The notes under the pieces are model-generated. The model did not search any database. It had not been told where the DNA came from and saw nothing but the letters and a program-made list of their open reading frames with translations. A stretch of DNA of 64,000 bases from Acidimicrobiales bacterium (GTDB lineage Bacteria; Actinomycetota; Acidimicrobiia; Acidimicrobiales; UBA8190), in contig JBEKIJ010000012.1 in assembly GCA_050011815.1 (NCBI GenBank), positions 18,974-82,973 on the forward strand, in the 5' to 3' direction. The position numbers were made by a program, and so were the translations under genes. The first letter of the stretch is position 1. The number at the start of each line of letters is the position of its first letter. This document shows positions 2,785 through 32,606 of this stretch, piece by piece.

Positions 2785-3966
2785 GTGGATTTCGATCTCT
2801 CTCCCGAATTGTCGGACCTCCAAGCGACGGTCCGGCGTCTGGCGCGCGACAAGGTCAAGCCCCGGGCCAGAGAGATCGACCGCACCGGCACCTATCCGAC
2901 CGACATCTTCGAAGCCTTTCGCGACGCGGGTCTGCTCGGCCTGTGCATCCCCGAGGAGTACGGGGGATCGGGAGCGGGGATCCTGGGTCTCACCATCGCC
3001 ATCGAGGAGGTGGCGAAGTACTCGAACGCGGCGGCTCTCATGTTGCTGCTCACCCGCCTGCCCACGGGGCCCTTGCTGATCGCGGGGACCGAGGAGCAGA
3101 AGCACCGCTACCTGCCGGCCCTGGCGGCGGGGGACACGCGCGCCGCCTTCGGCCTGTCCGAGCCCCAAGCCGGCAGCGACGTGATGGGCATCCGCACGCG
3201 CGCCACCCCTGACCCCGAGTCCGGCCACGAGGGGGGTTGGGTGCTCAAGGGCACCAAGTGTTGGATGTCGGGCGTGCGCGAGGCCGACTGGTACACGGTG
3301 TTCGCCAAGACCGGCGACCCGGCCAGCCGCGCCCATGACTCGGTTACCGCCTTCATCGTCGAACGATCCTGGCCGGGCGTGGACGTCGGTCGGACCGACC
3401 ACAAGATGGGGGTGCGCGGCGTCGACACCGGGGAGCTGCTCCTCGACGACGTGGCGGTGCCCGCCGGCAACGTCATCGGCGAGGTCGGCGGTTTCCGCCT
3501 GGCCATGTTGGGCCTCAACGCCATGCGGCCCGTCGTGGCGGCCCGGGGTATCGGGCTCGCCGAGGGCGCCCTCATGTACGCCACGGAGTACGTCCGCCAA
3601 CGCGCCGCCTTCGGAAAGACGATCGCCGACTTCCAGGGCGTGCAGTGGGAGATCGCCAAGTGCGCGGTGGACCTCGAGGCGGCCCGGCTGCTCACCTACC
3701 GCGCCGCCTGGCTCGCCGATCAAGGGAAGTTCACCAAGGAGTGGGTGCCGATGCTCTCGGCCGCCAAGTACCACGCCACCGAGCTGGCCGTGCGGGCCTC
3801 GGGCCTGGCCGTCCAGCTGCTCGGAGCGGCGGGGTACATGGAGGACCACCCCACCGAGCAGTGGTACCGCGACGCCAAGCAATTGACGATCGTGGAAGGC
3901 ACCAGCCAGGTCCAGTTGGGTCTGGTGGCGCGGGGTGTGCTCGATCACGACCTGTGGTGGGATTGA
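2785..3966 (+). CDS. Acyl-CoA dehydrogenase
   Basis: 393 aa with a GTG start. It has ACAD N-terminal, middle and C-terminal domain signatures (YGGSGAG, GLSEPQAGSD, GxxGYMEDHPTEQWYRDAK). Confidence 0.85.
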   Translation: MDFDLSPELSDLQATVRRLARDKVKPRAREIDRTGTYPTDIFEAFRDAGLLGLCIPEEYGGSGAGILGLTIAIEEVAKYSNAAALMLLLTRLPTGPLLIAGTEEQKHRYLPALAAGDTRAAFGLSEPQAGSDVMGIRTRATPDPESGHEGGWVLKGTKCWMSGVREADWYTVFAKTGDPASRAHDSVTAFIVERSWPGVDVGRTDHKMGVRGVDTGELLLDDVAVPAGNVIGEVGGFRLAMLGLNAMRPVVAARGIGLAEGALMYATEYVRQRAAFGKTIADFQGVQWEIAKCAVDLEAARLLTYRAAWLADQGKFTKEWVPMLSAAKYHATELAVRASGLAVQLLGAAGYMEDHPTEQWYRDAKQLTIVEGTSQVQLGLVARGVLDHDLWWD

Positions 3967-20288: not shown

Positions 20289-20355
20289 ACTACAGTGCTG
20301 TAATGGCCCCTGCATCTGGTAGGCCCCACAGGGGAGACCACAACATCTTGTGGTC
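20289..20355. promoter_or_regulatory. Two palindromes resembling NrdR boxes upstream of nrdJ, in the glpK-nrdJ divergent region
   Basis: The two sites are TACAG-tg-CTGTA (20291-20302) and ACCACAAcatcTTGTGGT (20338-20355). The second has perfect 8-bp arms and resembles the NrdR consensus acaCwAtATaTwGtgt. They lie 85-150 bp upstream of the nrdJ ATG. Confidence 0.35.
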
Positions 20356-20440
20356 TGGGGGGGACGACGGGCCGGGGGGCCCTGTTCCTCTCCCGGGGGC
20401 CCACACCTACGCTGGGAACCAAGGAAAGGGACCAACGAAC

Positions 20441-23400
20441 ATGGCAATCGCTCCGCAGCGGACCGCTATCGGCATTCGGCGGTACTTCACCACCGAAGGG
20501 GTCCACCCCTACGACGAGCTCGCATGGGACCGGCGCGATTCGCGCATCACCGACTACCGCGACGGCAGCATCGCCTTCGAGCAGCTCGAGGTCGAGGTGC
20601 CTGTCACCTGGAGCCTCAACGCCACCAACATCCTGGCCCAGAAGTACTTCCGGGGGACCCCCGGCACCGCCGAGCGCGAGACCTCGTTGAAGCAGGTGGC
20701 CGACCGGGTGGTGGACACCATCACCGCCTGGGGCATCAAGGACGGCTACTTCGAGGACGACGCCGAGGCGCAGACCTTCAGCGACGAGCTCAAGCACATC
20801 ATCGTGAACCAGCGGGCCGCATTCAACTCCCCGGTGTGGTTCAACATCGGTGTGAAAGGTGTCCCGCAGCAGGCCAGCGCGTGTTTCATCCTTGCCGTCG
20901 ACGACTCGATGGACTCGATCCTCAACTGGTACCGGGAAGAAGGCATCATCTTCAAGGGTGGTTCGGGCGCCGGCGTGAACCTGTCGAGCATCCGCGCCTC
21001 GGTCGAACGGCTCCAAGGCGGCGGTACCGCTTCGGGCCCGGTGTCGTTCATGCGCGGAGCCGACGCCTCGGCGGGGACGATCAAGTCCGGTGGCAAGACC
21101 CGCCGGGCCGCCAAGATGGTCATCCTCAACGACGACCACCCCGACATCGAGGACTTCATCTGGTGCAAGGCCCTCGAGGAGCGCAAGGCGCGGGTCCTTC
21201 GCGACAGCGGGTTCGACATGGACCTCGACGGATCCGACTCGTTCTCCATCCAGTACCAGAACGCCAACAACTCGGTGCGCGTGACCGACGAGTTCATGCA
21301 GGCCGTCCTCGACGACGCCGACTGGGCCCTCACGGCCCGCACCGACGGCTCGGCGGTCCGTATCGTCAAGGCTCGAGACCTGTTCCGCCAGATCGCCCAC
21401 GCCGCCTGGGAATGCGCCGACCCCGGCATGCAGTTCGACACGACCATCAATCGCTGGCACACGGCCCCCAACGCCGGCCGGATCAACGGCAGTAACCCTT
21501 GCTGCTTCGTGGGTGAGACAGAGGTCGTAACAGCCGATGGTCGGCTTTCTATCGCCGAACTGGCCCTCCGTTGTGAGCTGGGTGAGGACGCGCCGAACGT
21601 CGTCGCCTTCGATCTCACCAAGAGTGAGCTGGTCATGCCCGAGATGGTCAAGGCTTGGGTTGCGGGATACACGTCAGACCTCGTAGAGGTCACCACTGAC
21701 CGGGGTCGCTTGCGCTGTACGCCTGAGCATCCTTTCCTGACCATGACAGGCGAGTTTGTGCACGCACAGTCACTCGTTCCTGGAACGAGGCTTCACGGCC
21801 TTGAGGGTACTGAGCGGATCGTGTCCGTAGGCAGGCTCCGTTTGGAACAAGAAGTCCCCGTATACGACCTGGAGGTGGCGGGGGTTCACAACTTCGCCGT
21901 TGCGACCAGTGACTCCACCGGAGTCATCGTCCACAACAGCGAGTACATGCACATCGACAACAGCGCCTGCAACCTGGCCTCGATCAACCTGCTCAAGTAC
22001 CTCCGCGAGGACGACAGCTTCGACGCCGAGAGCTTCAACGCCACGGTGGACGTCGTGTTCACGGCGCAGGAGATCCTGGTCGGCAACGCCGACTACCCGA
22101 CCGAGAAGATCGCCGAGAACTCGCGCCGGTACCGTGAGCTCGGCCTCGGATACGCGAACCTGGGTGCCCTCCTCATGGCCCAGGGCCTGCCCTATGACTC
22201 CGACGAGGGTCGGGCCTGGGCCGCGTCGATCACGGCCCTCATGACGGGCCACGCCTACGCCGTGTCCGCTCGGACGGCGTCGCGCATGGGCCCCTTCGCC
22301 GGCTTCCACGCCGATCGCGAGGCGATGCTCAACGTGCTGCAGATGCACCGCGCCGAGGTCGCCAAGATCGACGAGGAGCTCGTTCCCATGGATCTGCTCT
22401 CCGCCGCTCAGGAAGCGTGGGACGATGCCGTCGAGCTCGGAGAGCAGTTCGGCGTGCGCAACTCCCAGGCCAGCGTCCTCGCCCCGACAGGAACCATCGC
22501 CCTGATGCTCGACTGTGACACCACCGGTGTCGAGCCCGACCTCGGCCTCGTGAAGACGAAGAAGCTCGTCGGTGGTGGGACCATGTCCATCGTCAACCAG
22601 ACGGTGCCCCGTGCCCTGGCGAGGCTCGGCTACATGCCCGAGCAGGTCGACGACATCATCTCCTACATCGACGAGCACAAGTCGATCGTGGGTGCCCCGC
22701 ACCTGGCGAGCGAGCACATGGCCGTGTTCGCCTGCTCGATGGGCGACAACACGATCCATTACACGGGGCACGTCCGCATGATGGGTGCCGTCCAACCGTT
22801 CATCAGCGGCGCCATCAGCAAGTGCGTCGTGGGTGACACCCTGCTTGCCACTACCGACGGGCTCATCCGTATCGGTGGCCTGCACCAGGGCGAGAGTCCC
22901 GACAGCTTCCGCGACGAGATCCTCGCCGTGGCGTCGATCGGTGGCATCCACAAGACCGACGCCTTCTACTACGGCGGTGTCCGCCCGGTGCGTCGGGTGG
23001 TGCTCCGTTCCGGCCACGCCGTCACCGGAACCCCGAACCACCGGGTGCTGACCGCGGGGGCGACGGGCCTCGACTGGAAGCGTCTCGACCAGGTCGAGCC
23101 GGGCGATTACGTGGCCTCGAAGTACGGGGACGAGTTGTGGTCGGAACTTCCCGCCCGTTTCGACGACTTCACGCCGACTCGCTCCTACGGCTCCCAGAAG
23201 ACGGTCCGGATCCCCGACGAGATGACGGACCCGCTGGCGTTCCTGCTCGGCGCCTACGCATCCGAGGGCCATACCTCGCGTTCGACGTGGACGATAGTCA
23301 TCACGAACTCCGAGGACGCCGTCCTGGAGGAGATCGCTGAGGCCGCTCGCGTGTGCTTCGACGTCGAAGCCAAGATCCGCCGTCCCGCGGACCGTTGCCC

Positions 23401-25081
23401 GAGCGTTGAGATCTCCTCGAAGACGATCGTCGAGTTCTTCGAGTACCTGGGATGCGGCGCACGGGCTTCGGCCAAGCGGATCCCCGATGCGGTGCTTCGT
23501 TCCCCCCGGGAGCTCGTGCTCTCGTTCCTCCAGGGTCTCGCCCTCGACGCCTACACCAGTGACGCCACGACGACGAAATGGGCGATCTGCCTCGACGCGC
23601 CCGCGCTCCTCGATGACCTGCAGGCGGTCCTGACCAACCTGGGCGTGGTGCACGGCCGGATCAGCAAGTCCAACAAGCTCAACGGCAAGACCTACGACGA
23701 GGTCTATGCCGCGGGTGTCCACGCCAAGAAGATGGTCGAGCTCGCCCCCTTCCTCGAGGCCCACAAGTCGGCAGCCGCCGCCCGCATGGTGGCCGGCATC
23801 ACGGAGACGCATCACAACACGGCTGACGTGGTGCCGGGGATCACGCCGGGCGAGCTCTATGCGCTCGTTCCCTACCGACGTCGCAACGAGCTCGGCGTCC
23901 TTCTCCGGACCGAGTTCAGCTTCCTGGCCGATCGTCGCACCAGGTTCGTGAGCCGGGAGACGGTCGCACGGGTGGCTCGCATCGAAGGCGTCACCCTCCC
24001 CGAATGGCTGGGCCAGGTCCTCGACGACAACCTTCACTTCAGCCCTGTGGCATCGGTGGACGATGCCGGTGCGCGCGAGGTATTCGACGTGTCGGTGCCA
24101 TACACGCATGCCTTCGTCGCCAACGGGATCGTCAACCACAACACGGTGAACCTGCCCGAGGACGTCACCGTCGAGGACATCGAGCAGCTGCACCTCGACG
24201 CCTGGCGCCTGGGGATCAAGGCCGTCGCCATCTATCGCGACAACTGCAAGGTGGGACAGCCCCTTTCCACCACCAAGAAGGCCGGCGTGGGTGAGGGTGG
24301 CGACTTCGCCCCGCCCGGATCTGATGCCGAAGCCCGTGACCGCGCCGCCGCGGCCCGGATCTCCGAGCTCGAGGCGGCCCTCGCCCACGAGCAGGGCCGG
24401 GCCCACGACACGGTGGTGGTGGGAGCGGTGCGCGAGCGCCTGCCCCGGCGTCGCAAGTCCAGCACCTTCGCTTTCCGAGTGGCCGACTGCGAGGGGTACG
24501 TGACCGTTGGGGAGTACGACGACGGTCGGCCCGGTGAGGTGTTCATGAAGGTCTCCAAGCAGGGCTCCACCCTGGCGGGGATCATGGACGCCTTCTCGAT
24601 CTCGGTCAGCCTGGGTCTGCAGCACGGGGTGCCGCTGGCCACTTATGTCCGCAAGTACTCGAACATGCGTTTCGAGCCCGCGGGGATCACCGATGACCCC
24701 GAACTCCGCATCGCCACCAGCCTGTTGGACTACATCTTCCGCCGGCTGGCGGTGGACTACCTGCCGCTCAGCGAGCGCGAGGAGCTCGGTGTGTTGTCGA
24801 CAGTGGAGCGGATGCAGCCGACCCTGCCCGGTGTGGAAGAAGCCGCCACGCCTGAACAGGACCTCGTCGAGGACTCGGGGATCAGCTCGGTGCCGCCGAC
24901 GGGACGCAGCGACCGGACCTCGGCGGTGTACCGCACGTCGTCACCGTCTACCTCCGGCTCGGCGACGGCACGGGCCGAGCAGAGCAACGCACCCCTGTGT
25001 TACCAGTGCGGGATGGTCATGCAGCGAGCAGGGTCCTGCTACCTGTGCACGAGCTGCGGGACGACGAGCGGCTGTTCGTAG
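20441..25081 (+). CDS. nrdJ: Vitamin B12-dependent (class II) ribonucleotide reductase interrupted by two in-frame inteins
   Basis: RBS AAGGAAAGG 8 bp upstream. Has the NrdJ N-terminal region, the active-site NPC motif, the AISK-TVNLPED region and a C-terminal CxxC...CxxC zinc ribbon. Two insertions are each bounded by an N-terminal Cys and a terminal HN followed by Ser or Thr. Confidence 0.9.
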   Translation: MAIAPQRTAIGIRRYFTTEGVHPYDELAWDRRDSRITDYRDGSIAFEQLEVEVPVTWSLNATNILAQKYFRGTPGTAERETSLKQVADRVVDTITAWGIKDGYFEDDAEAQTFSDELKHIIVNQRAAFNSPVWFNIGVKGVPQQASACFILAVDDSMDSILNWYREEGIIFKGGSGAGVNLSSIRASVERLQGGGTASGPVSFMRGADASAGTIKSGGKTRRAAKMVILNDDHPDIEDFIWCKALEERKARVLRDSGFDMDLDGSDSFSIQYQNANNSVRVTDEFMQAVLDDADWALTARTDGSAVRIVKARDLFRQIAHAAWECADPGMQFDTTINRWHTAPNAGRINGSNPCCFVGETEVVTADGRLSIAELALRCELGEDAPNVVAFDLTKSELVMPEMVKAWVAGYTSDLVEVTTDRGRLRCTPEHPFLTMTGEFVHAQSLVPGTRLHGLEGTERIVSVGRLRLEQEVPVYDLEVAGVHNFAVATSDSTGVIVHNSEYMHIDNSACNLASINLLKYLREDDSFDAESFNATVDVVFTAQEILVGNADYPTEKIAENSRRYRELGLGYANLGALLMAQGLPYDSDEGRAWAASITALMTGHAYAVSARTASRMGPFAGFHADREAMLNVLQMHRAEVAKIDEELVPMDLLSAAQEAWDDAVELGEQFGVRNSQASVLAPTGTIALMLDCDTTGVEPDLGLVKTKKLVGGGTMSIVNQTVPRALARLGYMPEQVDDIISYIDEHKSIVGAPHLASEHMAVFACSMGDNTIHYTGHVRMMGAVQPFISGAISKCVVGDTLLATTDGLIRIGGLHQGESPDSFRDEILAVASIGGIHKTDAFYYGGVRPVRRVVLRSGHAVTGTPNHRVLTAGATGLDWKRLDQVEPGDYVASKYGDELWSELPARFDDFTPTRSYGSQKTVRIPDEMTDPLAFLLGAYASEGHTSRSTWTIVITNSEDAVLEEIAEAARVCFDVEAKIRRPADRCPSVEISSKTIVEFFEYLGCGARASAKRIPDAVLRSPRELVLSFLQGLALDAYTSDATTTKWAICLDAPALLDDLQAVLTNLGVVHGRISKSNKLNGKTYDEVYAAGVHAKKMVELAPFLEAHKSAAAARMVAGITETHHNTADVVPGITPGELYALVPYRRRNELGVLLRTEFSFLADRRTRFVSRETVARVARIEGVTLPEWLGQVLDDNLHFSPVASVDDAGAREVFDVSVPYTHAFVANGIVNHNTVNLPEDVTVEDIEQLHLDAWRLGIKAVAIYRDNCKVGQPLSTTKKAGVGEGGDFAPPGSDAEARDRAAAARISELEAALAHEQGRAHDTVVVGAVRERLPRRRKSSTFAFRVADCEGYVTVGEYDDGRPGEVFMKVSKQGSTLAGIMDAFSISVSLGLQHGVPLATYVRKYSNMRFEPAGITDDPELRIATSLLDYIFRRLAVDYLPLSEREELGVLSTVERMQPTLPGVEEAATPEQDLVEDSGISSVPPTGRSDRTSAVYRTSSPSTSGSATARAEQSNAPLCYQCGMVMQRAGSCYLCTSCGTTSGCS
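21503..21937 (+). mobile_element. Mini-intein 1 (145 aa, no endonuclease domain) inserted after the catalytic NPC of NrdJ
   Basis: Starts CFVGETEVVTADG (block A) and ends GVIVHN, followed by the +1 Ser (SEYMHIDNSACNL). The extein NPC|SE junction corresponds to the conserved NPCGE active-site loop. GC content is visibly lower than in the flanking extein sequence. Confidence 0.8.
22823..24142 (+). mobile_element. Intein 2 (440 aa) with a LAGLIDADG homing endonuclease, inserted after AISK of NrdJ
   Basis: Starts CVVGDTLLATTDG and ends FVANGIVNHN, followed by the +1 Thr (TVNLPED). Two LAGLIDADG-type motifs are present (LAFLLGAYASEGH and LVLSFLQGLALDAY). Confidence 0.8.
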
Positions 25082-25179: not shown

Positions 25180-26343
25180 TTAGTGCGAACGGTGTCCCGA
25201 GCTGTGACCGAAGTATTCCGGCCCGTTCGTAGGTGCCCCCGACCCGAACCCGCCGTGGTTGCTCGTGGCATGACCTTTCGGCCCCGACACGTCTGGCGAC
25301 CCTCCGGCCACTGATCCTCTCGGGCTCCCGAATACGGCGTGGGGCTTGGGTGTCGTGGGTGGGGAGGGAACCACGAACACGCTGGTGGCGGTCACGGTGC
25401 CGCTCGAGATGGTGCCAAAGGCGCCCACCTGCTCACCCACGCACACGTTGACGAACGTCGGTGCGCTCACGCCGTGCTCGGAGAAGGTCGTGGTGGTGCT
25501 CACGTCGACGGTGAAGGTCGAACTGTGGAACCCGTTCAAGGTGAACGTCCCCGCCGTGGCCGCCACCCCACAGGTGCCGGTGGTGCTCGTCCCGTTGACC
25601 GAAGCCACCGTCCCGAAGGCGGCGTGGGGCTTGGGCGTCGGGGGCGGCGTCACGAACACGCTGGTGGCGCTCACGGTGCCGCTCGAGATCATGCCGAAGG
25701 CGCCCACCTTCTCACCCACGCACACGTTGACGAACGTCGGTGCGCTCACGCCCTTCTCGGAGAAGGTCGTCGTGGTGCTCACGTCGACGGTGAAGGTCGT
25801 GCTGGGGAACCCGTTCAAGGTGAACGTCCCCGCCGTGGCCGCCACCCCACAGGTGCCGGTGGTGCTCGTCCCGTTGACCGAGGCCACCGTTCCGAAGACG
25901 GCGTGGGGCTTGGGCGTCGGGGGCGTCGTCACGAATACGCTGGTGGCGCTCACCGTGCCGCTCGAGATCATGCCGACGGCACCCACCTTCTCACCCACGC
26001 AGACGTTGGCGAAGGTCGGTGTGCTCACGCCGTGCTCGGAGAAGGTCGTCGTGGTGCTCACGTCGACGGTGAAGGTCGTGCTGGGGAGCGCGTCCAAGAC
26101 GAAAGCTCCCGCGGTGGCGGCGACGCCACATGTGCCGGTGGTGCTCGTCCCGTTGACCGAGGCCACCGTTCCGAAGACGCCCGTTGGCGCGTCGCGATGA
26201 TGGTGACGGCCATGGTGGCCGCTGCCGGTCGAGAGCCCACCCGAAGCACGCAACGTCGTTGCCGACGCCGCTGCGCCGGAGAGCAGGACCACCGCCAGTG
26301 TCGCCAAAATGGCGATCTTTGCCATGCGCCATGTTCTGGACAT
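25180..26343 (-). CDS. Secreted repetitive protein: signal peptide, His-rich termini and three ~90-aa tandem repeats
   Basis: Has a signal peptide (MAKIAILATLAVVLLSGAAASA) and a His cluster (HHGRHHHRD). It contains three near-identical repeats (AVFGTVASVNGTSTTGTCGVAATAG...NVCVGEKVGA.GMISSGTVSATSVFVT.PPTPKPH), each with two Cys, and a His/Gly-rich C-terminal tail. Confidence 0.6.
   Translation of the reverse strand: MSRTWRMAKIAILATLAVVLLSGAAASATTLRASGGLSTGSGHHGRHHHRDAPTGVFGTVASVNGTSTTGTCGVAATAGAFVLDALPSTTFTVDVSTTTTFSEHGVSTPTFANVCVGEKVGAVGMISSGTVSATSVFVTTPPTPKPHAVFGTVASVNGTSTTGTCGVAATAGTFTLNGFPSTTFTVDVSTTTTFSEKGVSAPTFVNVCVGEKVGAFGMISSGTVSATSVFVTPPPTPKPHAAFGTVASVNGTSTTGTCGVAATAGTFTLNGFHSSTFTVDVSTTTTFSEHGVSAPTFVNVCVGEQVGAFGTISSGTVTATSVFVVPSPPTTPKPHAVFGSPRGSVAGGSPDVSGPKGHATSNHGGFGSGAPTNGPEYFGHSSGHRSH
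25330..26175. repeat. About 279-bp tandem DNA repeat, three copies, inside the repeat-protein gene
   Basis: Near-identical units begin at ~25327, ~25621 and ~25900 (ggcgtggggcttggg...ccgaagacg). Confidence 0.7.
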
Positions 26344-26659
26344 GAATCCCCCCTGTGTTGAGTGCAGATCGCTCGGTCCGTCGCTGGCAGGCCGAGTCGC
26401 CCGTCCCCCCGCCGATGTTCCGGTGGACGAGCCGAGCGTGTAATGGCTGTTGAGGCACCTTTGCCCGAATACGTGGTCTTGTAAACACCCTATGTGATAA
26501 TTGTGACACTCGCCGCTTAGCGTCACCGAGGCACCGACCGCGAAGAAGGGCCGTGACCAGGCAGTTCATCTGAGATGCGCGCAGCGGAGCGGGAATCCCA
26601 GGATTCAGACAACGACTCGGGGCGCGGTGGATCGCCCTACCGCAAGAGCTCCCGGAGGG

Positions 26660-30210: not shown

Positions 30211-30963
30211 ATGAACCCGAACACCGACCGAGTTGGCACCCTCATCGGCCGCCGCGGGGCGCGGGCAATCGCCGCCCTTGTCGTGTTGGGGGGATTTGGG
30301 CTCACCGGGTGCAGCGTCGTGAACGCAGTCAAGAAGGTCGAGCATGACGTGAGGGGCAACAAGGCGACGATCGATGCCTTCACGAACAAGATCAACTCCA
30401 GCCAGGGGGCGACCTTCGAAGCCACCTACGCCACCACCGGTAGCTCGCCGGCGACGGTCGTCTACGCCGTCGAACCGCCACAGGGCCTCGCCTTCGAGGT
30501 CACCCCCACGGGAACGAGTACGAGCAGTGTGCACATCATCGTGAACACGTCCGGGGAGTACTCCTGCACCGCCTCGAATGGTTCGAGCTCAGGGCCGGCC
30601 TGTCAGAAGTTGGGAACGGCCGACGCCGCCGCCGAGAACAGGATCTTCGACCTCTACACCCCGGCACACTGGACCGCATTCCTCAAGGACTTCTCGCTCG
30701 CCGCCGGCTTGGCCGGCGACACGGTCACGTCGTCGGCCACGACGGTGAACGGATTCGCCATGCAGTGCGTCGACTTCCAGGCATCGGGGGTGGCGGGCAC
30801 GAGCACGATCTGCACGACTGCTCAAGGCATCTTGGGCTTTGTCCAGGTGGCGTCGGACTCGACCAGTTTCGAGCTCAAGAGCTATTCGCCGTCGCCGCCG
30901 GACTCCCTGTTCGAGCTGCCCCCCGGCGCGACCATCACCACCTCCCCCCCGACGACGTCGTAG
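30211..30963 (+). CDS. Putative lipoprotein (Ser/Thr-rich, secreted)
   Basis: Signal peptide with the lipobox LTGC at residues ~29-32. The mature domain is Thr/Ser-rich with four Cys. GC is somewhat below the window average. Confidence 0.6.
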   Translation: MNPNTDRVGTLIGRRGARAIAALVVLGGFGLTGCSVVNAVKKVEHDVRGNKATIDAFTNKINSSQGATFEATYATTGSSPATVVYAVEPPQGLAFEVTPTGTSTSSVHIIVNTSGEYSCTASNGSSSGPACQKLGTADAAAENRIFDLYTPAHWTAFLKDFSLAAGLAGDTVTSSATTVNGFAMQCVDFQASGVAGTSTICTTAQGILGFVQVASDSTSFELKSYSPSPPDSLFELPPGATITTSPPTTS

Positions 30964-31151
30964 GGCGGCTCCTGGGGCCGCCTCTCGGACGCTTCTGGGA
31001 CGGGAGCCGGGTCCGGTTCGTGGTTGTCGTCCGACCACGAGCTCCGTCCCGATCGGGGCGCTTCGCCGGCAGATACGATCGGGGCGCAAGCCAGGACGTG
31101 AAGCCCTGTGCATACACTGCTGGCAGTGACCTTGAGGAGTTCGGCACTTCG

Positions 31152-31364
31152 ATGATCGACGATGACTTGACGGGCATGGTGGGGCGTGTCTCGGTTCCGA
31201 TTCCCACTGATGGATCGGGGGAAGTCATATTGAGCGTCCGAGGTGGATCCGAGGCCTTCACGGCCTACACGCAAGGCAATGAGGCCCTGACCAAGAATGC
31301 CCGCGCTGTCGTCGTCGAGCAGACGGGTCCGCGCACAATCTTGGTTACAGCCGCTGGGTATTGA
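31152..31364 (+). CDS. NfeD-like C-terminal OB-fold domain protein (short form)
   Basis: GMVGRVSVPIPTDGSGEVILSVRGGSEAFTAYTQGNEALTKNARAVVVEQTGPRTILV matches the NfeD beta-barrel domain. It sits directly upstream of a flotillin gene, which is the classic NfeD-SPFH pairing. No TM segment is seen, so this may be a remnant or a short form. Confidence 0.45.
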   Translation: MIDDDLTGMVGRVSVPIPTDGSGEVILSVRGGSEAFTAYTQGNEALTKNARAVVVEQTGPRTILVTAAGY

Positions 31365-31394
31365 TCGTCTTCCTTTTGAGAAGGGTCCGACATC

Positions 31395-32606
31395 ATGTTC
31401 TTCTACCGAATCCCCGAGCCCAACCAAGCGCTTGTCATCTCCGGATCCAAAGGTGGCGCCGACGGCGCCCAGTTCCGGATCGTCACCGGTCACGGCACCT
31501 TCGTCGCCCCTTGGCGGTCGCGAGCACGGATCTTGTCCCTCGATCTCTACGAGGCCGAGCTCGAAGAGAGCTGCGTGACCGGCCAGGGCATCCCGCTGAC
31601 GGTCCAGGCGGTCGCCGTCTTCAAGGTCGCTGACGATTTTCAGTCCATCGCCAACGCCGCCCGGCGTTTCCTCGACCAGCAGGACCAGATGGAGTCCCTC
31701 GTGGGCCAGATCCTGGCCGGCCACCTGCGGTCGATCGTGGGCAGTCTCACCGTCGAGAAGATCATCACGGACCGAAACAGCCTGGCACAGGAGGTGAAGT
31801 CTGCGTCATCGGACGAGATGGAGAAGCTCGGGCTCGTCGTCGACGCCTTCCAGATCCAAGAGGTGGGCGACCCCTCGGGATACATCAAGAACCTGGCCGC
31901 GCCGCACATCGCCGAAGTGGAGAAGAACGCCCGCATCGCGCAGGCCCAGGCGGACCAGGCCGCCACCGAACGAGAGCAGGAGGCCAACGCCCAGAAGGCC
32001 GGGTTCACGAGGGACTCCGAGATCAAGCAGGCCGGTGCTCGGGCCGAGGTCCAGGCCGCCCAGGCCGAAGCCGATCAGGCCGGGCCCCTCTCGCAGGCCA
32101 AGGCCGCCCAGAAGGTGACCGAGGAGCAGGCGGCCCTGGCGGCCAAGCAGGCCGAGAAGCGCCAGGCCGAGCTGGTCGCCGAGGTTCAGAAGCCCGCTGA
32201 CGCCGAGGCGTACAAGACGGTCAAGTTGGCCGAGGCACAACGCGATGCCATGCGAGCGCAAGCCGACGCGCTGGGCGAGGGAAACCTCGAGCGGATCGTC
32301 GCCTCGAAGATGGTCGAGATGATGCCGGCCATCGTGGCGTCACTGGCCCAAGGTCTCAGCGGCGCCAACCTGAGTGTGGTGAACGGAGCCGAAGGCGTCG
32401 GACAGGTCGTCACGGGGTTGGTGGCGTCGGGACGATCGATCTACGACGCCTTGTTGTCGGCGGTTCCCGGTGCCGTTCCCCTGGCGTCAGCCGACGAGGT
32501 GGCCCTGGTGCCGAGCCGGGAGCTGGCCACCGCCCCAGACGGAGCGGTGCATGCGGACCAGCAGGACGGGGATGTCCGGGGCCCCCGGCTCCGCCCCGCA
32601 CCCTGA
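31395..32606 (+). CDS. Flotillin-like SPFH/band-7 protein
   Basis: An N-terminal SPFH domain is followed by a long Ala/Glu/Gln-rich coiled-coil region (flotillin EA repeats: AQAQADQAATEREQEANAQKA...). Confidence 0.85.
   Translation: MFFYRIPEPNQALVISGSKGGADGAQFRIVTGHGTFVAPWRSRARILSLDLYEAELEESCVTGQGIPLTVQAVAVFKVADDFQSIANAARRFLDQQDQMESLVGQILAGHLRSIVGSLTVEKIITDRNSLAQEVKSASSDEMEKLGLVVDAFQIQEVGDPSGYIKNLAAPHIAEVEKNARIAQAQADQAATEREQEANAQKAGFTRDSEIKQAGARAEVQAAQAEADQAGPLSQAKAAQKVTEEQAALAAKQAEKRQAELVAEVQKPADAEAYKTVKLAEAQRDAMRAQADALGEGNLERIVASKMVEMMPAIVASLAQGLSGANLSVVNGAEGVGQVVTGLVASGRSIYDALLSAVPGAVPLASADEVALVPSRELATAPDGAVHADQQDGDVRGPRLRPAP

Follow-up and report, generated by a model that had tools for sequence, protein, structure and literature searches.

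A probably old, endonuclease-free mini-intein with an AT-shifted composition in the radical-cysteine loop of an Acidimicrobiales class II ribonucleotide reductase

The gene for class II ribonucleotide reductase (RNR) of an Acidimicrobiales bacterium, nrdJ, which is located within the 64-kb stretch of DNA analyzed here in its entirety (hereafter, the window), is interrupted by two inteins, the first of which splits the active-site loop of the enzyme. At the level of sequence, this first insert is confirmed as a canonical class-1 mini-intein, a member of a known intein family. It is quite probable that this is an old, mostly vertically inherited intein that occupies the site of the NrdJ-1 intein and has been free of an endonuclease since before its subfamily radiated, with an AT shift that is a persistent property rather than a scar of transfer. 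The relevant features are as follows.

20441-25081, forward strand: nrdJ, precursor of a class II (B12-dependent) ribonucleotide reductase with two inteins (Pfam and ENA matches)
21500-21502, forward strand: codon TGC, residue -1, the Cys of GSNPC (aligns to the NPC of the NrdJ structures 7b9p and 1xje)
21503-21937, forward strand: mini-intein of 145 amino acids without a homing endonuclease, GC3 0.683 (motifs, Pfam, empty-site loci)
21503-21526, forward strand: block A, CFVGETEV, with the predicted nucleophile Cys1 (conserved in 12 of the 12 subfamily members)
21713-21736, forward strand: block B, RCTPEHPF, with Thr73 and His76 of TxxH (conserved across the 12 subfamily members; aligned with RCTPDHP in the NrdJ-1 structure 8ubs)
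21860-21901, forward strand: block F, VYDLEVAGVHNFAV, with Asp122 (motif alignment)
21923-21937, forward strand: block G, VIVHN, with the penultimate His144 and the terminal Asn145 (motif alignment)
21938-21940, forward strand: Ser+1 (AGC), first residue of the C-extein and predicted acceptor nucleophile, start of SEYMH (junction; likeness to NrdJ-1)
22823-24142, forward strand: second intein in nrdJ, 440 amino acids, LAGLIDADG type, at the ISK/TVN site, GC3 0.861 (internal comparator; in extein sequences, the slash denotes the insertion point)

The 1592-codon open reading frame at 20303-25081 on the forward strand is NrdJ, with Pfam matches to Ribonuc_red_2_N, Ribonuc_red_lgC and TSCPD as well as Intein_splicing and LAGLIDADG_3. 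The start is assigned to the ATG at 20441, yielding a product of 1546 amino acids that is identical to one called on an ENA contig, and the frame is unbroken throughout. By alignment, the Cys of GSNPC is the predicted thiyl-radical cysteine. The motif GGAAAGGG was found 5' of the ATG; a search with a degenerate NrdR-box pattern gave no match, and the exact NrdR-box palindrome, searched instead of this pattern, is conserved. An Rfam scan of the whole window detected no family at threshold and, hence, no B12 riboswitch at nrdJ.

The intein extends from TGC at 21503 to AAC at 21937, that is, over 435 nucleotides encoding 145 amino acids (CFVGE...GVIVHN), and separates the thiyl-radical Cys of NrdJ from the Ser that follows (GSNPC/SEYMH). 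All catalytic residues are in place: Cys1, Thr73 and His76 are present, block F reads VYDLEV/HNF, and the intein ends in ...VIVHN/S, with a nucleophilic residue at +1, in agreement with class 1. The only Pfam matches within the 145 amino acids are Intein_splicing (E=8e-12) and PT-HINT (5e-9), with no LAGLIDADG or HNH match, and only a linker of about 20 residues separates blocks B and F, as befits a mini-intein (about 130-200 amino acids). A Hint fold is suggested by the Pfam profile matches; a single-sequence AlphaFold model was uninformative (pLDDT 32). Judging from the motifs, the NPC-SE active-site loop of the precursor could not form until the intein excises itself. Splicing would begin with an N-S acyl shift by Cys1, aided by Thr73 and His76, followed by the transfer of the N-extein to the hydroxyl of Ser+1, the cyclization of Asn145, aided by His144 and Asp122, and, finally, an O-N shift that would restore the peptide bond.

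Comparison with related genomic loci defines the insertion precisely. In 50 such loci, exactly the 435 nucleotides are missing, the exteins abut with a gap of 0 nucleotides, and the junction reads NPC/SEY. Together with the motifs and the Pfam profiles, these empty loci bear out the initial annotation of a mini-intein in the radical-cysteine loop without a homing endonuclease. The same annotation held that Ser+1 replaces the usual Gly, which is not the case: Ser occupies this position in 50 of the 50 intein-free relatives and in the solved intein-free NrdJ 7b9p (NPCSEYM), whereas the NrdJ of Thermotoga maritima (1xje) reads NPCGE.

The site is already known, as the one occupied by the NrdJ-1 split intein. 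NrdJ-1 was described from the GOS metagenome (Dassa et al. 2009, PMC2677866; structures 8ubs and 9omb), has the native exteins NPC/SEI and depends on an obligate +1 Ser (PMC13123727). The two inteins share the host protein and the insertion point, which lies one residue beyond the common RNR site in the C-terminal direction, with NPC/SE and Ser at +1 in both, and resemble each other in block B (RCTPDHP in NrdJ-1 versus RCTPEHP in the window), with a weak sequence match to 8ubs (E=5e-4). NrdJ-1 is, however, a natural split intein from a phage-like locus whose halves flank a free-standing endonuclease gene, whereas the window intein is contiguous, chromosomal and from Acidimicrobiales, with only a distant sequence similarity to NrdJ-1. 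The most frequent intein site in RNR is NP/C, directly N-terminal of the thiyl-radical Cys (Dassa 2009), one codon upstream of the site considered here, so that its +1 residue is the radical Cys itself. Inteins at NP/C occupy the same active-site loop, likewise have to splice before catalysis and were detected in 23 of the 80 related genomic loci, including L023, in which the extein flanks are 98% identical; the Acidimicrobiia representatives, LAGLIDADG inteins of 350-414 amino acids, form a long separate branch.

The closest relatives among the representatives of ~15 billion proteins are inteins at SNPC/C...N/SEY with 40-50% identity. Most of the closest among the 1822 HMMER matches (E<=1e-3) are likewise at the same site, at 40-51% identity, and a word-indexed protein search gave four matches. 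These contiguous NrdJ inteins at SNPC/.../SE(Y/F) share the site and the blocks and include minis of 144-172 amino acids along with HNH forms of 293-360 amino acids, which carry an insert of ~150 amino acids with a Pfam HNH_3 domain between blocks B and F, in place of the short linker of the window intein. The Acidimicrobiia subfamily (L082-L090), with 145-146 amino acids, has exactly the same architecture as the window intein. The best sequence match in the PDB is to a different member of the Hint superfamily, the BIL domain 2lwy, over the full length (E=1e-4). BIL domains reside in variable, non-essential proteins; in contrast, the window intein sits in a conserved catalytic site with a nucleophile at +1, and the intein-free alleles are missing exactly this insert.

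All 12 members of the subfamily to which the window intein belongs are minis, with 145-163 amino acids, and the Acidimicrobiia members are still 145-146 amino acids long at 49-53% identity. HNH-bearing forms occur only in the wider family, interspersed with minis. The mini length shared across the subfamily implies that the endonuclease-free state predates the subfamily, so that the loss of the endonuclease appears to be old, antedating the subfamily radiation. This does not fit the initial suggestion that the intein lost its endonuclease only after its transfer.

The compositional difference between the intein and its host gene is clear-cut. The GC content of the intein is 0.598, compared with 0.666 for the extein and 0.695 for the 64-kb window, and the GC3 contrast with the extein (0.900) and with the second intein is highly significant (Fisher test, p=6.8e-11 and p=5.7e-6, respectively). 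Only 0.24% of the 435-nucleotide windows in the 64 kb are equally AT-rich, and unsupervised segmentation of GC3 with two breakpoints delineated 21491-21922, at most five codons from the intein borders (log-likelihood ratio 22.7). The codon check proposed in the initial annotation, with indistinguishable composition as the refuting outcome, thus separates the intein clearly from the extein (0.68 versus 0.90). Co-transferred flanks are rejected as a contribution to this pattern: GC3 is back to 0.9-1.0 in the first extein bin on each side, and divergence in the 30-nucleotide flanks is about the same as elsewhere in the extein.

The low GC3 is not a peculiarity of the window. Intact copies at the same site are present in three related genomes, L081, L082 and L083, all of which also have the second intein, so that the two inteins co-occur in the same four genomes; across the four intact copies of the first intein, GC3 is 0.68-0.76. 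Singleton changes in these copies include 34 GC-to-AT and 10 AT-to-GC substitutions, that is, no excess of AT-to-GC. In a pattern-likelihood fit to the four copies, a stationary model is adequate at the third positions (likelihood ratio test statistic 0.57; equilibrium 0.70), with low power (144 sites, star-tree approximation) and a poorly identified unconstrained fit. The per-branch probability of GC-to-AT change amounts to 0.18 for the intein and 0.054 for the extein, and that of AT-to-GC change is similar in the two (0.42 and 0.51). The singleton counts and the likelihood fit took the place of polarization with the L005 copy as the outgroup, which was rejected as unreliable given that this copy is decayed and third positions are near saturation. 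Conserved rare codons that could cause translational pausing are unsupported as well, with A or T shared by all four copies at only 3 of the 144 third positions. The description of the insert as an AT-rich selfish element, accordingly, stands insofar as its composition deviates sharply from that of the host gene, but not as a mark of recent transfer because the third positions appear stationary. Elsewhere in the family, the relationship with the host differs: the L086 and L088 copies resemble the host in GC3, with a dS ratio of 0.97, and the L014 intein exceeds its host in GC content, which shows that inteins do move between GC regimes.

The divergence of the copies is consistent with long residence. 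The host dS between the window and L081, L082 and L083 is 0.41-0.56. A fourth relative, L005, retains a decayed copy with frameshifts, in which the Cys1 region and the C-terminal His-Asn are missing; L005 and L081 derive from assemblies with indels. The dN/dS of the intein is 0.12, compared with 0.04 for the flanking extein (window versus L081), and intein dN is far below dS in the comparisons with L082 and L083: the intein is under purifying selection. The synonymous divergence, in turn, climbs as GC3 drops, from 0.38-0.56 in the extein (GC3 ~0.90) to 0.50-0.67 in the second intein (~0.86) and 0.95-1.40 in the first intein (0.68-0.76). In every close pair, the dS of the first intein is 1.8-2.7 times that of the host, and the approximately twofold excess persists after a composition-aware correction at four-fold sites (1.8-2.0 times). 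Amelioration could produce an increase of about 2.4-fold but is rejected as the cause because it predicts a strong excess of AT-to-GC changes, whereas the observed excess is in the other direction or absent. A synonymous divergence about twice that of the host is thus puzzling.

One reading of this excess is that the copies were acquired or exchanged separately in each lineage, drawing on a diverged reservoir with GC3 of ~0.7, such as a phage- or plasmid-borne nrdJ or other Actinomycetota, with entry by homologous recombination via the conserved extein flanks. The elevated dS could then mean that the copies coalesce before their hosts, and the seemingly stationary composition, around 0.70, as well as the GC-rich intein of L014, would fit. 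So would the distances between inteins beyond the immediate clade, which are flat at ~0.7-1.1 whatever the host distance, and the fast turnover, whereby L008 and L023, only 8.5% apart in glpK, differ at two intein sites; altogether, the NrdJ of this clade has five or more intein sites, and close relatives carry empty, mini, endonuclease-bearing or decayed alleles. Nevertheless, such repeated re-seeding appears unlikely. It requires four or five independent hits at one site within a single host clade, and every donor would have to be unsampled, given that the clade copies are most closely related to one another, with the next intein at 53% identity or less. Furthermore, the ranking of intein dS follows that of host dS, the second intein is shared by the same four genomes, and in a scan of viral contigs for a phage vector, the best match did not exceed 36% identity. 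The same pairs come together in the intein and host trees (Spearman 0.63), a congruence that is weakly tested inside the clade because the host tree is nearly a star (glpK distances 0.145-0.156). Host trees group the window with L081 and L005, and the tree of the 280-amino-acid extein groups it with L082 and L083.

Much less probable still is the scenario of the initial annotation, namely, recent arrival from a lower-GC donor by endonuclease-driven homing, followed by loss of the endonuclease, with the composition as yet unameliorated. The GC3 contrast with breakpoints at the intein borders and the HNH-bearing relatives at the same site are compatible with such an event, as is the lack of the intein in the sister pair L008/L023, the closest intein-free relatives, which are 97-98% identical to the window in the 100-amino-acid extein flanks on each side; under vertical descent, the intein would have been either gained shortly after this pair branched off or lost in it. 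These observations are offset by the intact copies in L081, L082 and L083 and the decayed one in L005, at host dS of at least 0.41, by the uniformly low GC3 and the preponderance of GC-to-AT singletons, and by the mini length kept down to ~50% identity. No copy with more than 82% identity was detected in protein, metagenome or viral searches, and none in a foreign host is near-identical. Among the marks of a recent transfer, deviating composition is observed, whereas tree incongruence, amelioration and a donor copy are not, and L008/L023 is the only sister pair from which the intein is missing. Finally, a defunct nrdJ with a decaying insert that does not splice, for which the decayed L005 copy and an in-frame 63-amino-acid remnant without block B in P0004 provide precedents among relatives, is hardly credible given the intact frame, the complete set of catalytic residues and the low dN/dS of both the intein and the flanking extein.

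Under the favored reading of an old, mostly vertically inherited mini-intein, its AT-shifted synonymous composition would be persistent and roughly stationary, alongside a synonymous divergence about twice that of the host, in a clade where NrdJ gains and loses inteins rapidly at five or more sites. As a tentative and rather doubtful extension, the third positions might be at an AT-shifted equilibrium, rather than carry a relic, because an insert polymorphic for presence and absence partly escapes a force that favors the fixation of GC. GC-biased gene conversion, for example, would have no partner segment for the intein in recombination with intein-free alleles. Such an escape would make GC-to-AT synonymous fixation about three times as frequent as in the flanking extein and so could yield both GC3 of ~0.70 and dS about twice that of the host. 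The observed gradation from the extein to the second intein to the first, with a dS ratio near 1 in L086 and L088 and their host-like GC3, would then be the signature of this escape.

Taken alone, this is an ordinary intein: inteins in the radical-Cys loop of RNR have been known for decades and the exact insertion point since 2009. It is, however, related to the biotechnologically important NrdJ-1 split intein while being contiguous and naturally devoid of an endonuclease, and its homologues of 145-146 amino acids could be mined for Ser+1 splicing tools. The clade represents a compact natural experiment, in which the composition and rate of a mini-intein in one essential gene have long been decoupled from those of the host gene, and bears on how endonuclease-free inteins persist and what maintains high GC3. 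If the third positions do reflect a partial escape from GC-favoring fixation, the inteins of high-GC Actinomycetota would serve as internal probes of whatever force sustains the GC richness of these genomes.

The nrdJ gene harbors two inteins:

20303..25081, + strand: nrdJ ORF, class II, B12-dependent ribonucleotide reductase (Pfam: Ribonuc_red_2_N, Ribonuc_red_lgC and TSCPD, along with Intein_splicing and LAGLIDADG_3)
21500-21502, + strand: TGC, the Cys codon of GSNPC
21503-21937, + strand: intein 1, from TGC to AAC, 435 nt or 145 amino acids
21938-21940, + strand: AGC, the Ser+1 codon that starts SEYMH
22823-24142, + strand: intein 2, 440 amino acids, LAGLIDADG_3 type, at an ISK|TVN site of the same gene

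The true start of nrdJ is the ATG at 20441, with GGAAAGGG just before it, giving a product of 1546 amino acids; an identical product was called on an ENA metagenome contig. Reading of the DNA and its translation confirms the intein 1 boundaries of the initial annotation to the nucleotide. The full canonical class-1 motif set is present: Cys1 within CFVGETEV, Thr73 and His76 within RCTPEHPF, Asp122 within VYDLEV followed by HNF, and His144-Asn145 at the C-terminus, next to Ser+1. The only Pfam matches in the 145 amino acids are Intein_splicing and PT-HINT, without any endonuclease family, in agreement with the original description of an intein devoid of a homing endonuclease.

A perfect 16-nt palindrome, CCACAACATCTTGTGG, is located at 20338-20353, about 90 nt ahead of the start codon of nrdJ; it is found as an exact copy in 16 related loci and resembles the NrdR box consensus. 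An Rfam scan detected no riboswitch or other Rfam family anywhere in the window. An ORF on the reverse strand (25180-26526) contains 2.9 copies of a 279-nt unit (25372-26179, 92% identity) that encode three Thr/Ser/Val/Gly-rich modules of roughly 93 amino acids in a secreted-looking protein; the same repeats are present in two related loci, L081 and L005.

Intein 1 interrupts the radical-Cys loop as a discrete insertion. A query of 345 amino acids (intein 1 with 100 extein residues per side), scanned against one genome per species, yielded 80 loci, essentially all from metagenome-assembled genomes of Acidimicrobiales and other Actinomycetota, in each of which the N- and C-extein flanks were placed separately. 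The gap between the flanks is exactly 0 nt, with the junction NPC|SEY, in 50 of the 80 loci; in five (L001-L005), NPC|S, the position of intein 1, is occupied by mini inserts of 376-489 nt, and in 23 a LAGLIDADG intein of 1050-1242 nt starts one codon upstream (NP|C...N|CSEY), so that the radical Cys itself is the +1 residue. According to Dassa et al. 2009 (PMC2677866), inteins in ribonucleotide reductases are most often located directly N-terminal of the thiyl-radical Cys; the split inteins NrdJ-1 and NrdJ-2 lie one residue further toward the C-terminus, at a point 'not previously observed' at that date. The insertion point of NrdJ-1, with its native exteins NPC and SEI and an obligate +1 Ser (PMC13123727, 2026), is identical to that of intein 1. 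The Ser+1 was initially thought to replace a Gly, a reading contradicted by the intein-free relatives, in which Ser follows the Cys in 50 of 50 cases, and by the solved intein-free NrdJ 7b9p (GSNPCSEYM). Thus, Ser is the normal residue of this NrdJ subtype (the Thermotoga maritima NrdJ, 1xje, has TNPCGE and human R1 has SNLCTE) and probably makes the NPC|S site usable by a Ser+1 intein.

With intein 1 in place, the radical Cys is cut off from the remainder of the loop, and activity of the reductase would have to await splicing. Judging from the motifs and the biochemistry of NrdJ-1, Cys1 would form a thioester, followed by transfer onto Ser+1, cyclization of Asn145 and, finally, an O-N shift. 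The dN/dS of 0.12 for intein 1 (0.04 for the adjacent extein) and the intact 1546-codon ORF suggest that the intein and its gene are both functional.

The AT-shift of intein 1 is genuine and has sharp borders. The GC and GC3 values are 0.598 and 0.683 for intein 1, 0.666 and 0.900 for the extein, and 0.664 and 0.861 for intein 2, with a GC of 0.695 for the whole window. The difference in GC-ending codons is significant against both the extein (Fisher p=6.8e-11) and intein 2 (p=5.7e-6), and a base composition this AT-rich occurs in only 0.24% of all 435-nt windows of the 64 kb. Blind two-breakpoint segmentation by GC3 delineates 21491-21922 (LLR 22.7), and GC3 is back to 0.9-1.0 in the first extein bins on either side; the claim of a distinct composition therefore stands. 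The sole other equally AT-rich stretch (about 30967-31660, GC 0.59 over 435 nt) lies where a lipoprotein-like ORF (30211-30963), an NfeD-like ORF segment and a flotillin/SPFH-like ORF (31395-32606) meet.

HMMER, run exhaustively on representatives of about 15 billion proteins, returned 1822 matches at E<=1e-3, the closest being mostly inteins at the same SNPC|C...N|SE(Y/F) site, with only 40-51% identity. The 50 delimitable same-site inteins include 23 minis (144-172 amino acids) and 27 of 293-360 amino acids that contain an HNH_3 endonuclease. The two forms are interspersed in the splicing-domain tree (P0029, 151 amino acids, pairs with P0086, 357; P0098, 157, with P0075, 293), and therefore, endonuclease loss is recurrent in this family. 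Intein 1 itself falls among Actinomycetota minis. Metagenomic copies from L082 and L083 show 82% and 76% identity to it, each exactly 145 amino acids long, and the farther Acidimicrobiia copies (L084-L090), with 49-53% identity, still have 145-146. Conservation of this architecture down to about 50% identity implies that the loss is ancient, contrary to the suggestion that it followed a recent arrival. Some NP|C (+1 Cys) inteins (minis P0039, P0050 and P0089, and the 299 amino acid P0063) are nested in the NPC|S (+1 Ser) tree, which suggests that one intein lineage moved its insertion point by one codon. In the low-GC host L014 (extein GC3 0.39, locus GC 0.48), the NP|C intein has a GC3 of 0.58 and is thus more GC-rich than its host, direct evidence of such inteins crossing GC regimes.

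Both inteins occupy the same sites in L081, an ENA contig with 9.1 kb of synteny to the window (85% nucleotide identity), as well as in L082 and L083. L005 contains a decayed intein 1 (3301-3676), which is frameshifted and has deletions of the Cys1 region and of the terminal His-Asn, and protein P0004 retains an in-frame 63 amino acid remnant in the active-site loop, without block B; these decayed copies reflect either a dead host nrdJ or assembly artefacts. Trees of glpK and three extein segments, in which the host clade is close to star-shaped, mostly unite the window, L081 and L005, beside the L008/L023 pair that lacks intein 1. Across 12 hosts, intein and host trees recover the same groups (window/L082/L083, L084/L089, L086/L088 and L002/L004), and intein and host distances are correlated (Spearman 0.63, p=1e-8). 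Protein, metagenome and viral searches found no near-identical copy in foreign hosts or viral contigs. Taken together, these observations indicate that intein 1 predates the split of at least four species-level lineages, with host dS of 0.41-0.56; it was either gained right after the split from L008/L023 or lost in that pair.

The synonymous divergence of intein 1 is unusually high. Between the window and L081, dS (NG86) is 0.38-0.43 for extein segments, 0.41 and 0.43 for neighboring genes, 0.50 for intein 2 and 1.03 for intein 1, compared with 0.41 +/- 0.08 (maximum 0.71) in 140-codon extein bootstraps. In clean pairs, the values are 0.95-1.40 for intein 1 and 0.46-0.56 for the extein, and at four-fold sites with composition-aware correction, the ratio is 1.8-2.0. 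Intein 2 (GC3 0.86) is intermediate, at 0.64-0.67 in clean pairs, about 1.2-1.45 times the extein; in the L086/L088 pair, the intein has the GC3 of its host and a dS ratio of 0.97. The four intact copies of intein 1 (window, L081-L083) have GC3 of 0.68, 0.68, 0.76 and 0.69, and the per-branch GC to AT probability is 0.18, compared with 0.054 in the extein.

The preferred, tentative reading is that, under vertical descent, the GC-favoring fixation force is weaker within the insert. The alternative, judged less likely, is re-seeding of each lineage from an unsampled reservoir with a GC3 around 0.7. Amelioration predicts the opposite of what is observed: third-position singletons in the four intact copies comprise 34 GC to AT and 10 AT to GC changes, and a stationary model fits like the free one (LRT 0.57), with an equilibrium of 0.70, so that the low GC3 is a maintained state. 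Selection for particular rare codons is improbable, given that all four copies have A/T at only 3 of the 144 third positions. The original inference of recent transfer is not supported, considering the sharing among at least four lineages, the agreement of the trees and the lack of an amelioration signal.

The NrdJ of this clade has at least five intein sites (QQASA|CF, near residue 541, NP|C, NPC|S and ISK|T), and L008 and L023 differ at two sites despite being only 8.5% apart in glpK. In the relatives, QQASA|CF accommodates minis of about 139 and forms of about 357 amino acids, and the site near extein residue 541 accommodates inserts of about 1310 nt, with occurrences in L008 (2263-2679), L005, L015, L018 and others; the window's empty site is 20882/20883. 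Of the initial interpretation, a selfish mini-intein of foreign-looking composition is supported, and the Ser-for-Gly replacement, the recent transfer and the later endonuclease loss are not. The wider interest is confined to two features: the persistent decoupling of the intein's synonymous composition and synonymous rate, and the very fast turnover of inteins in the NrdJ of this clade.
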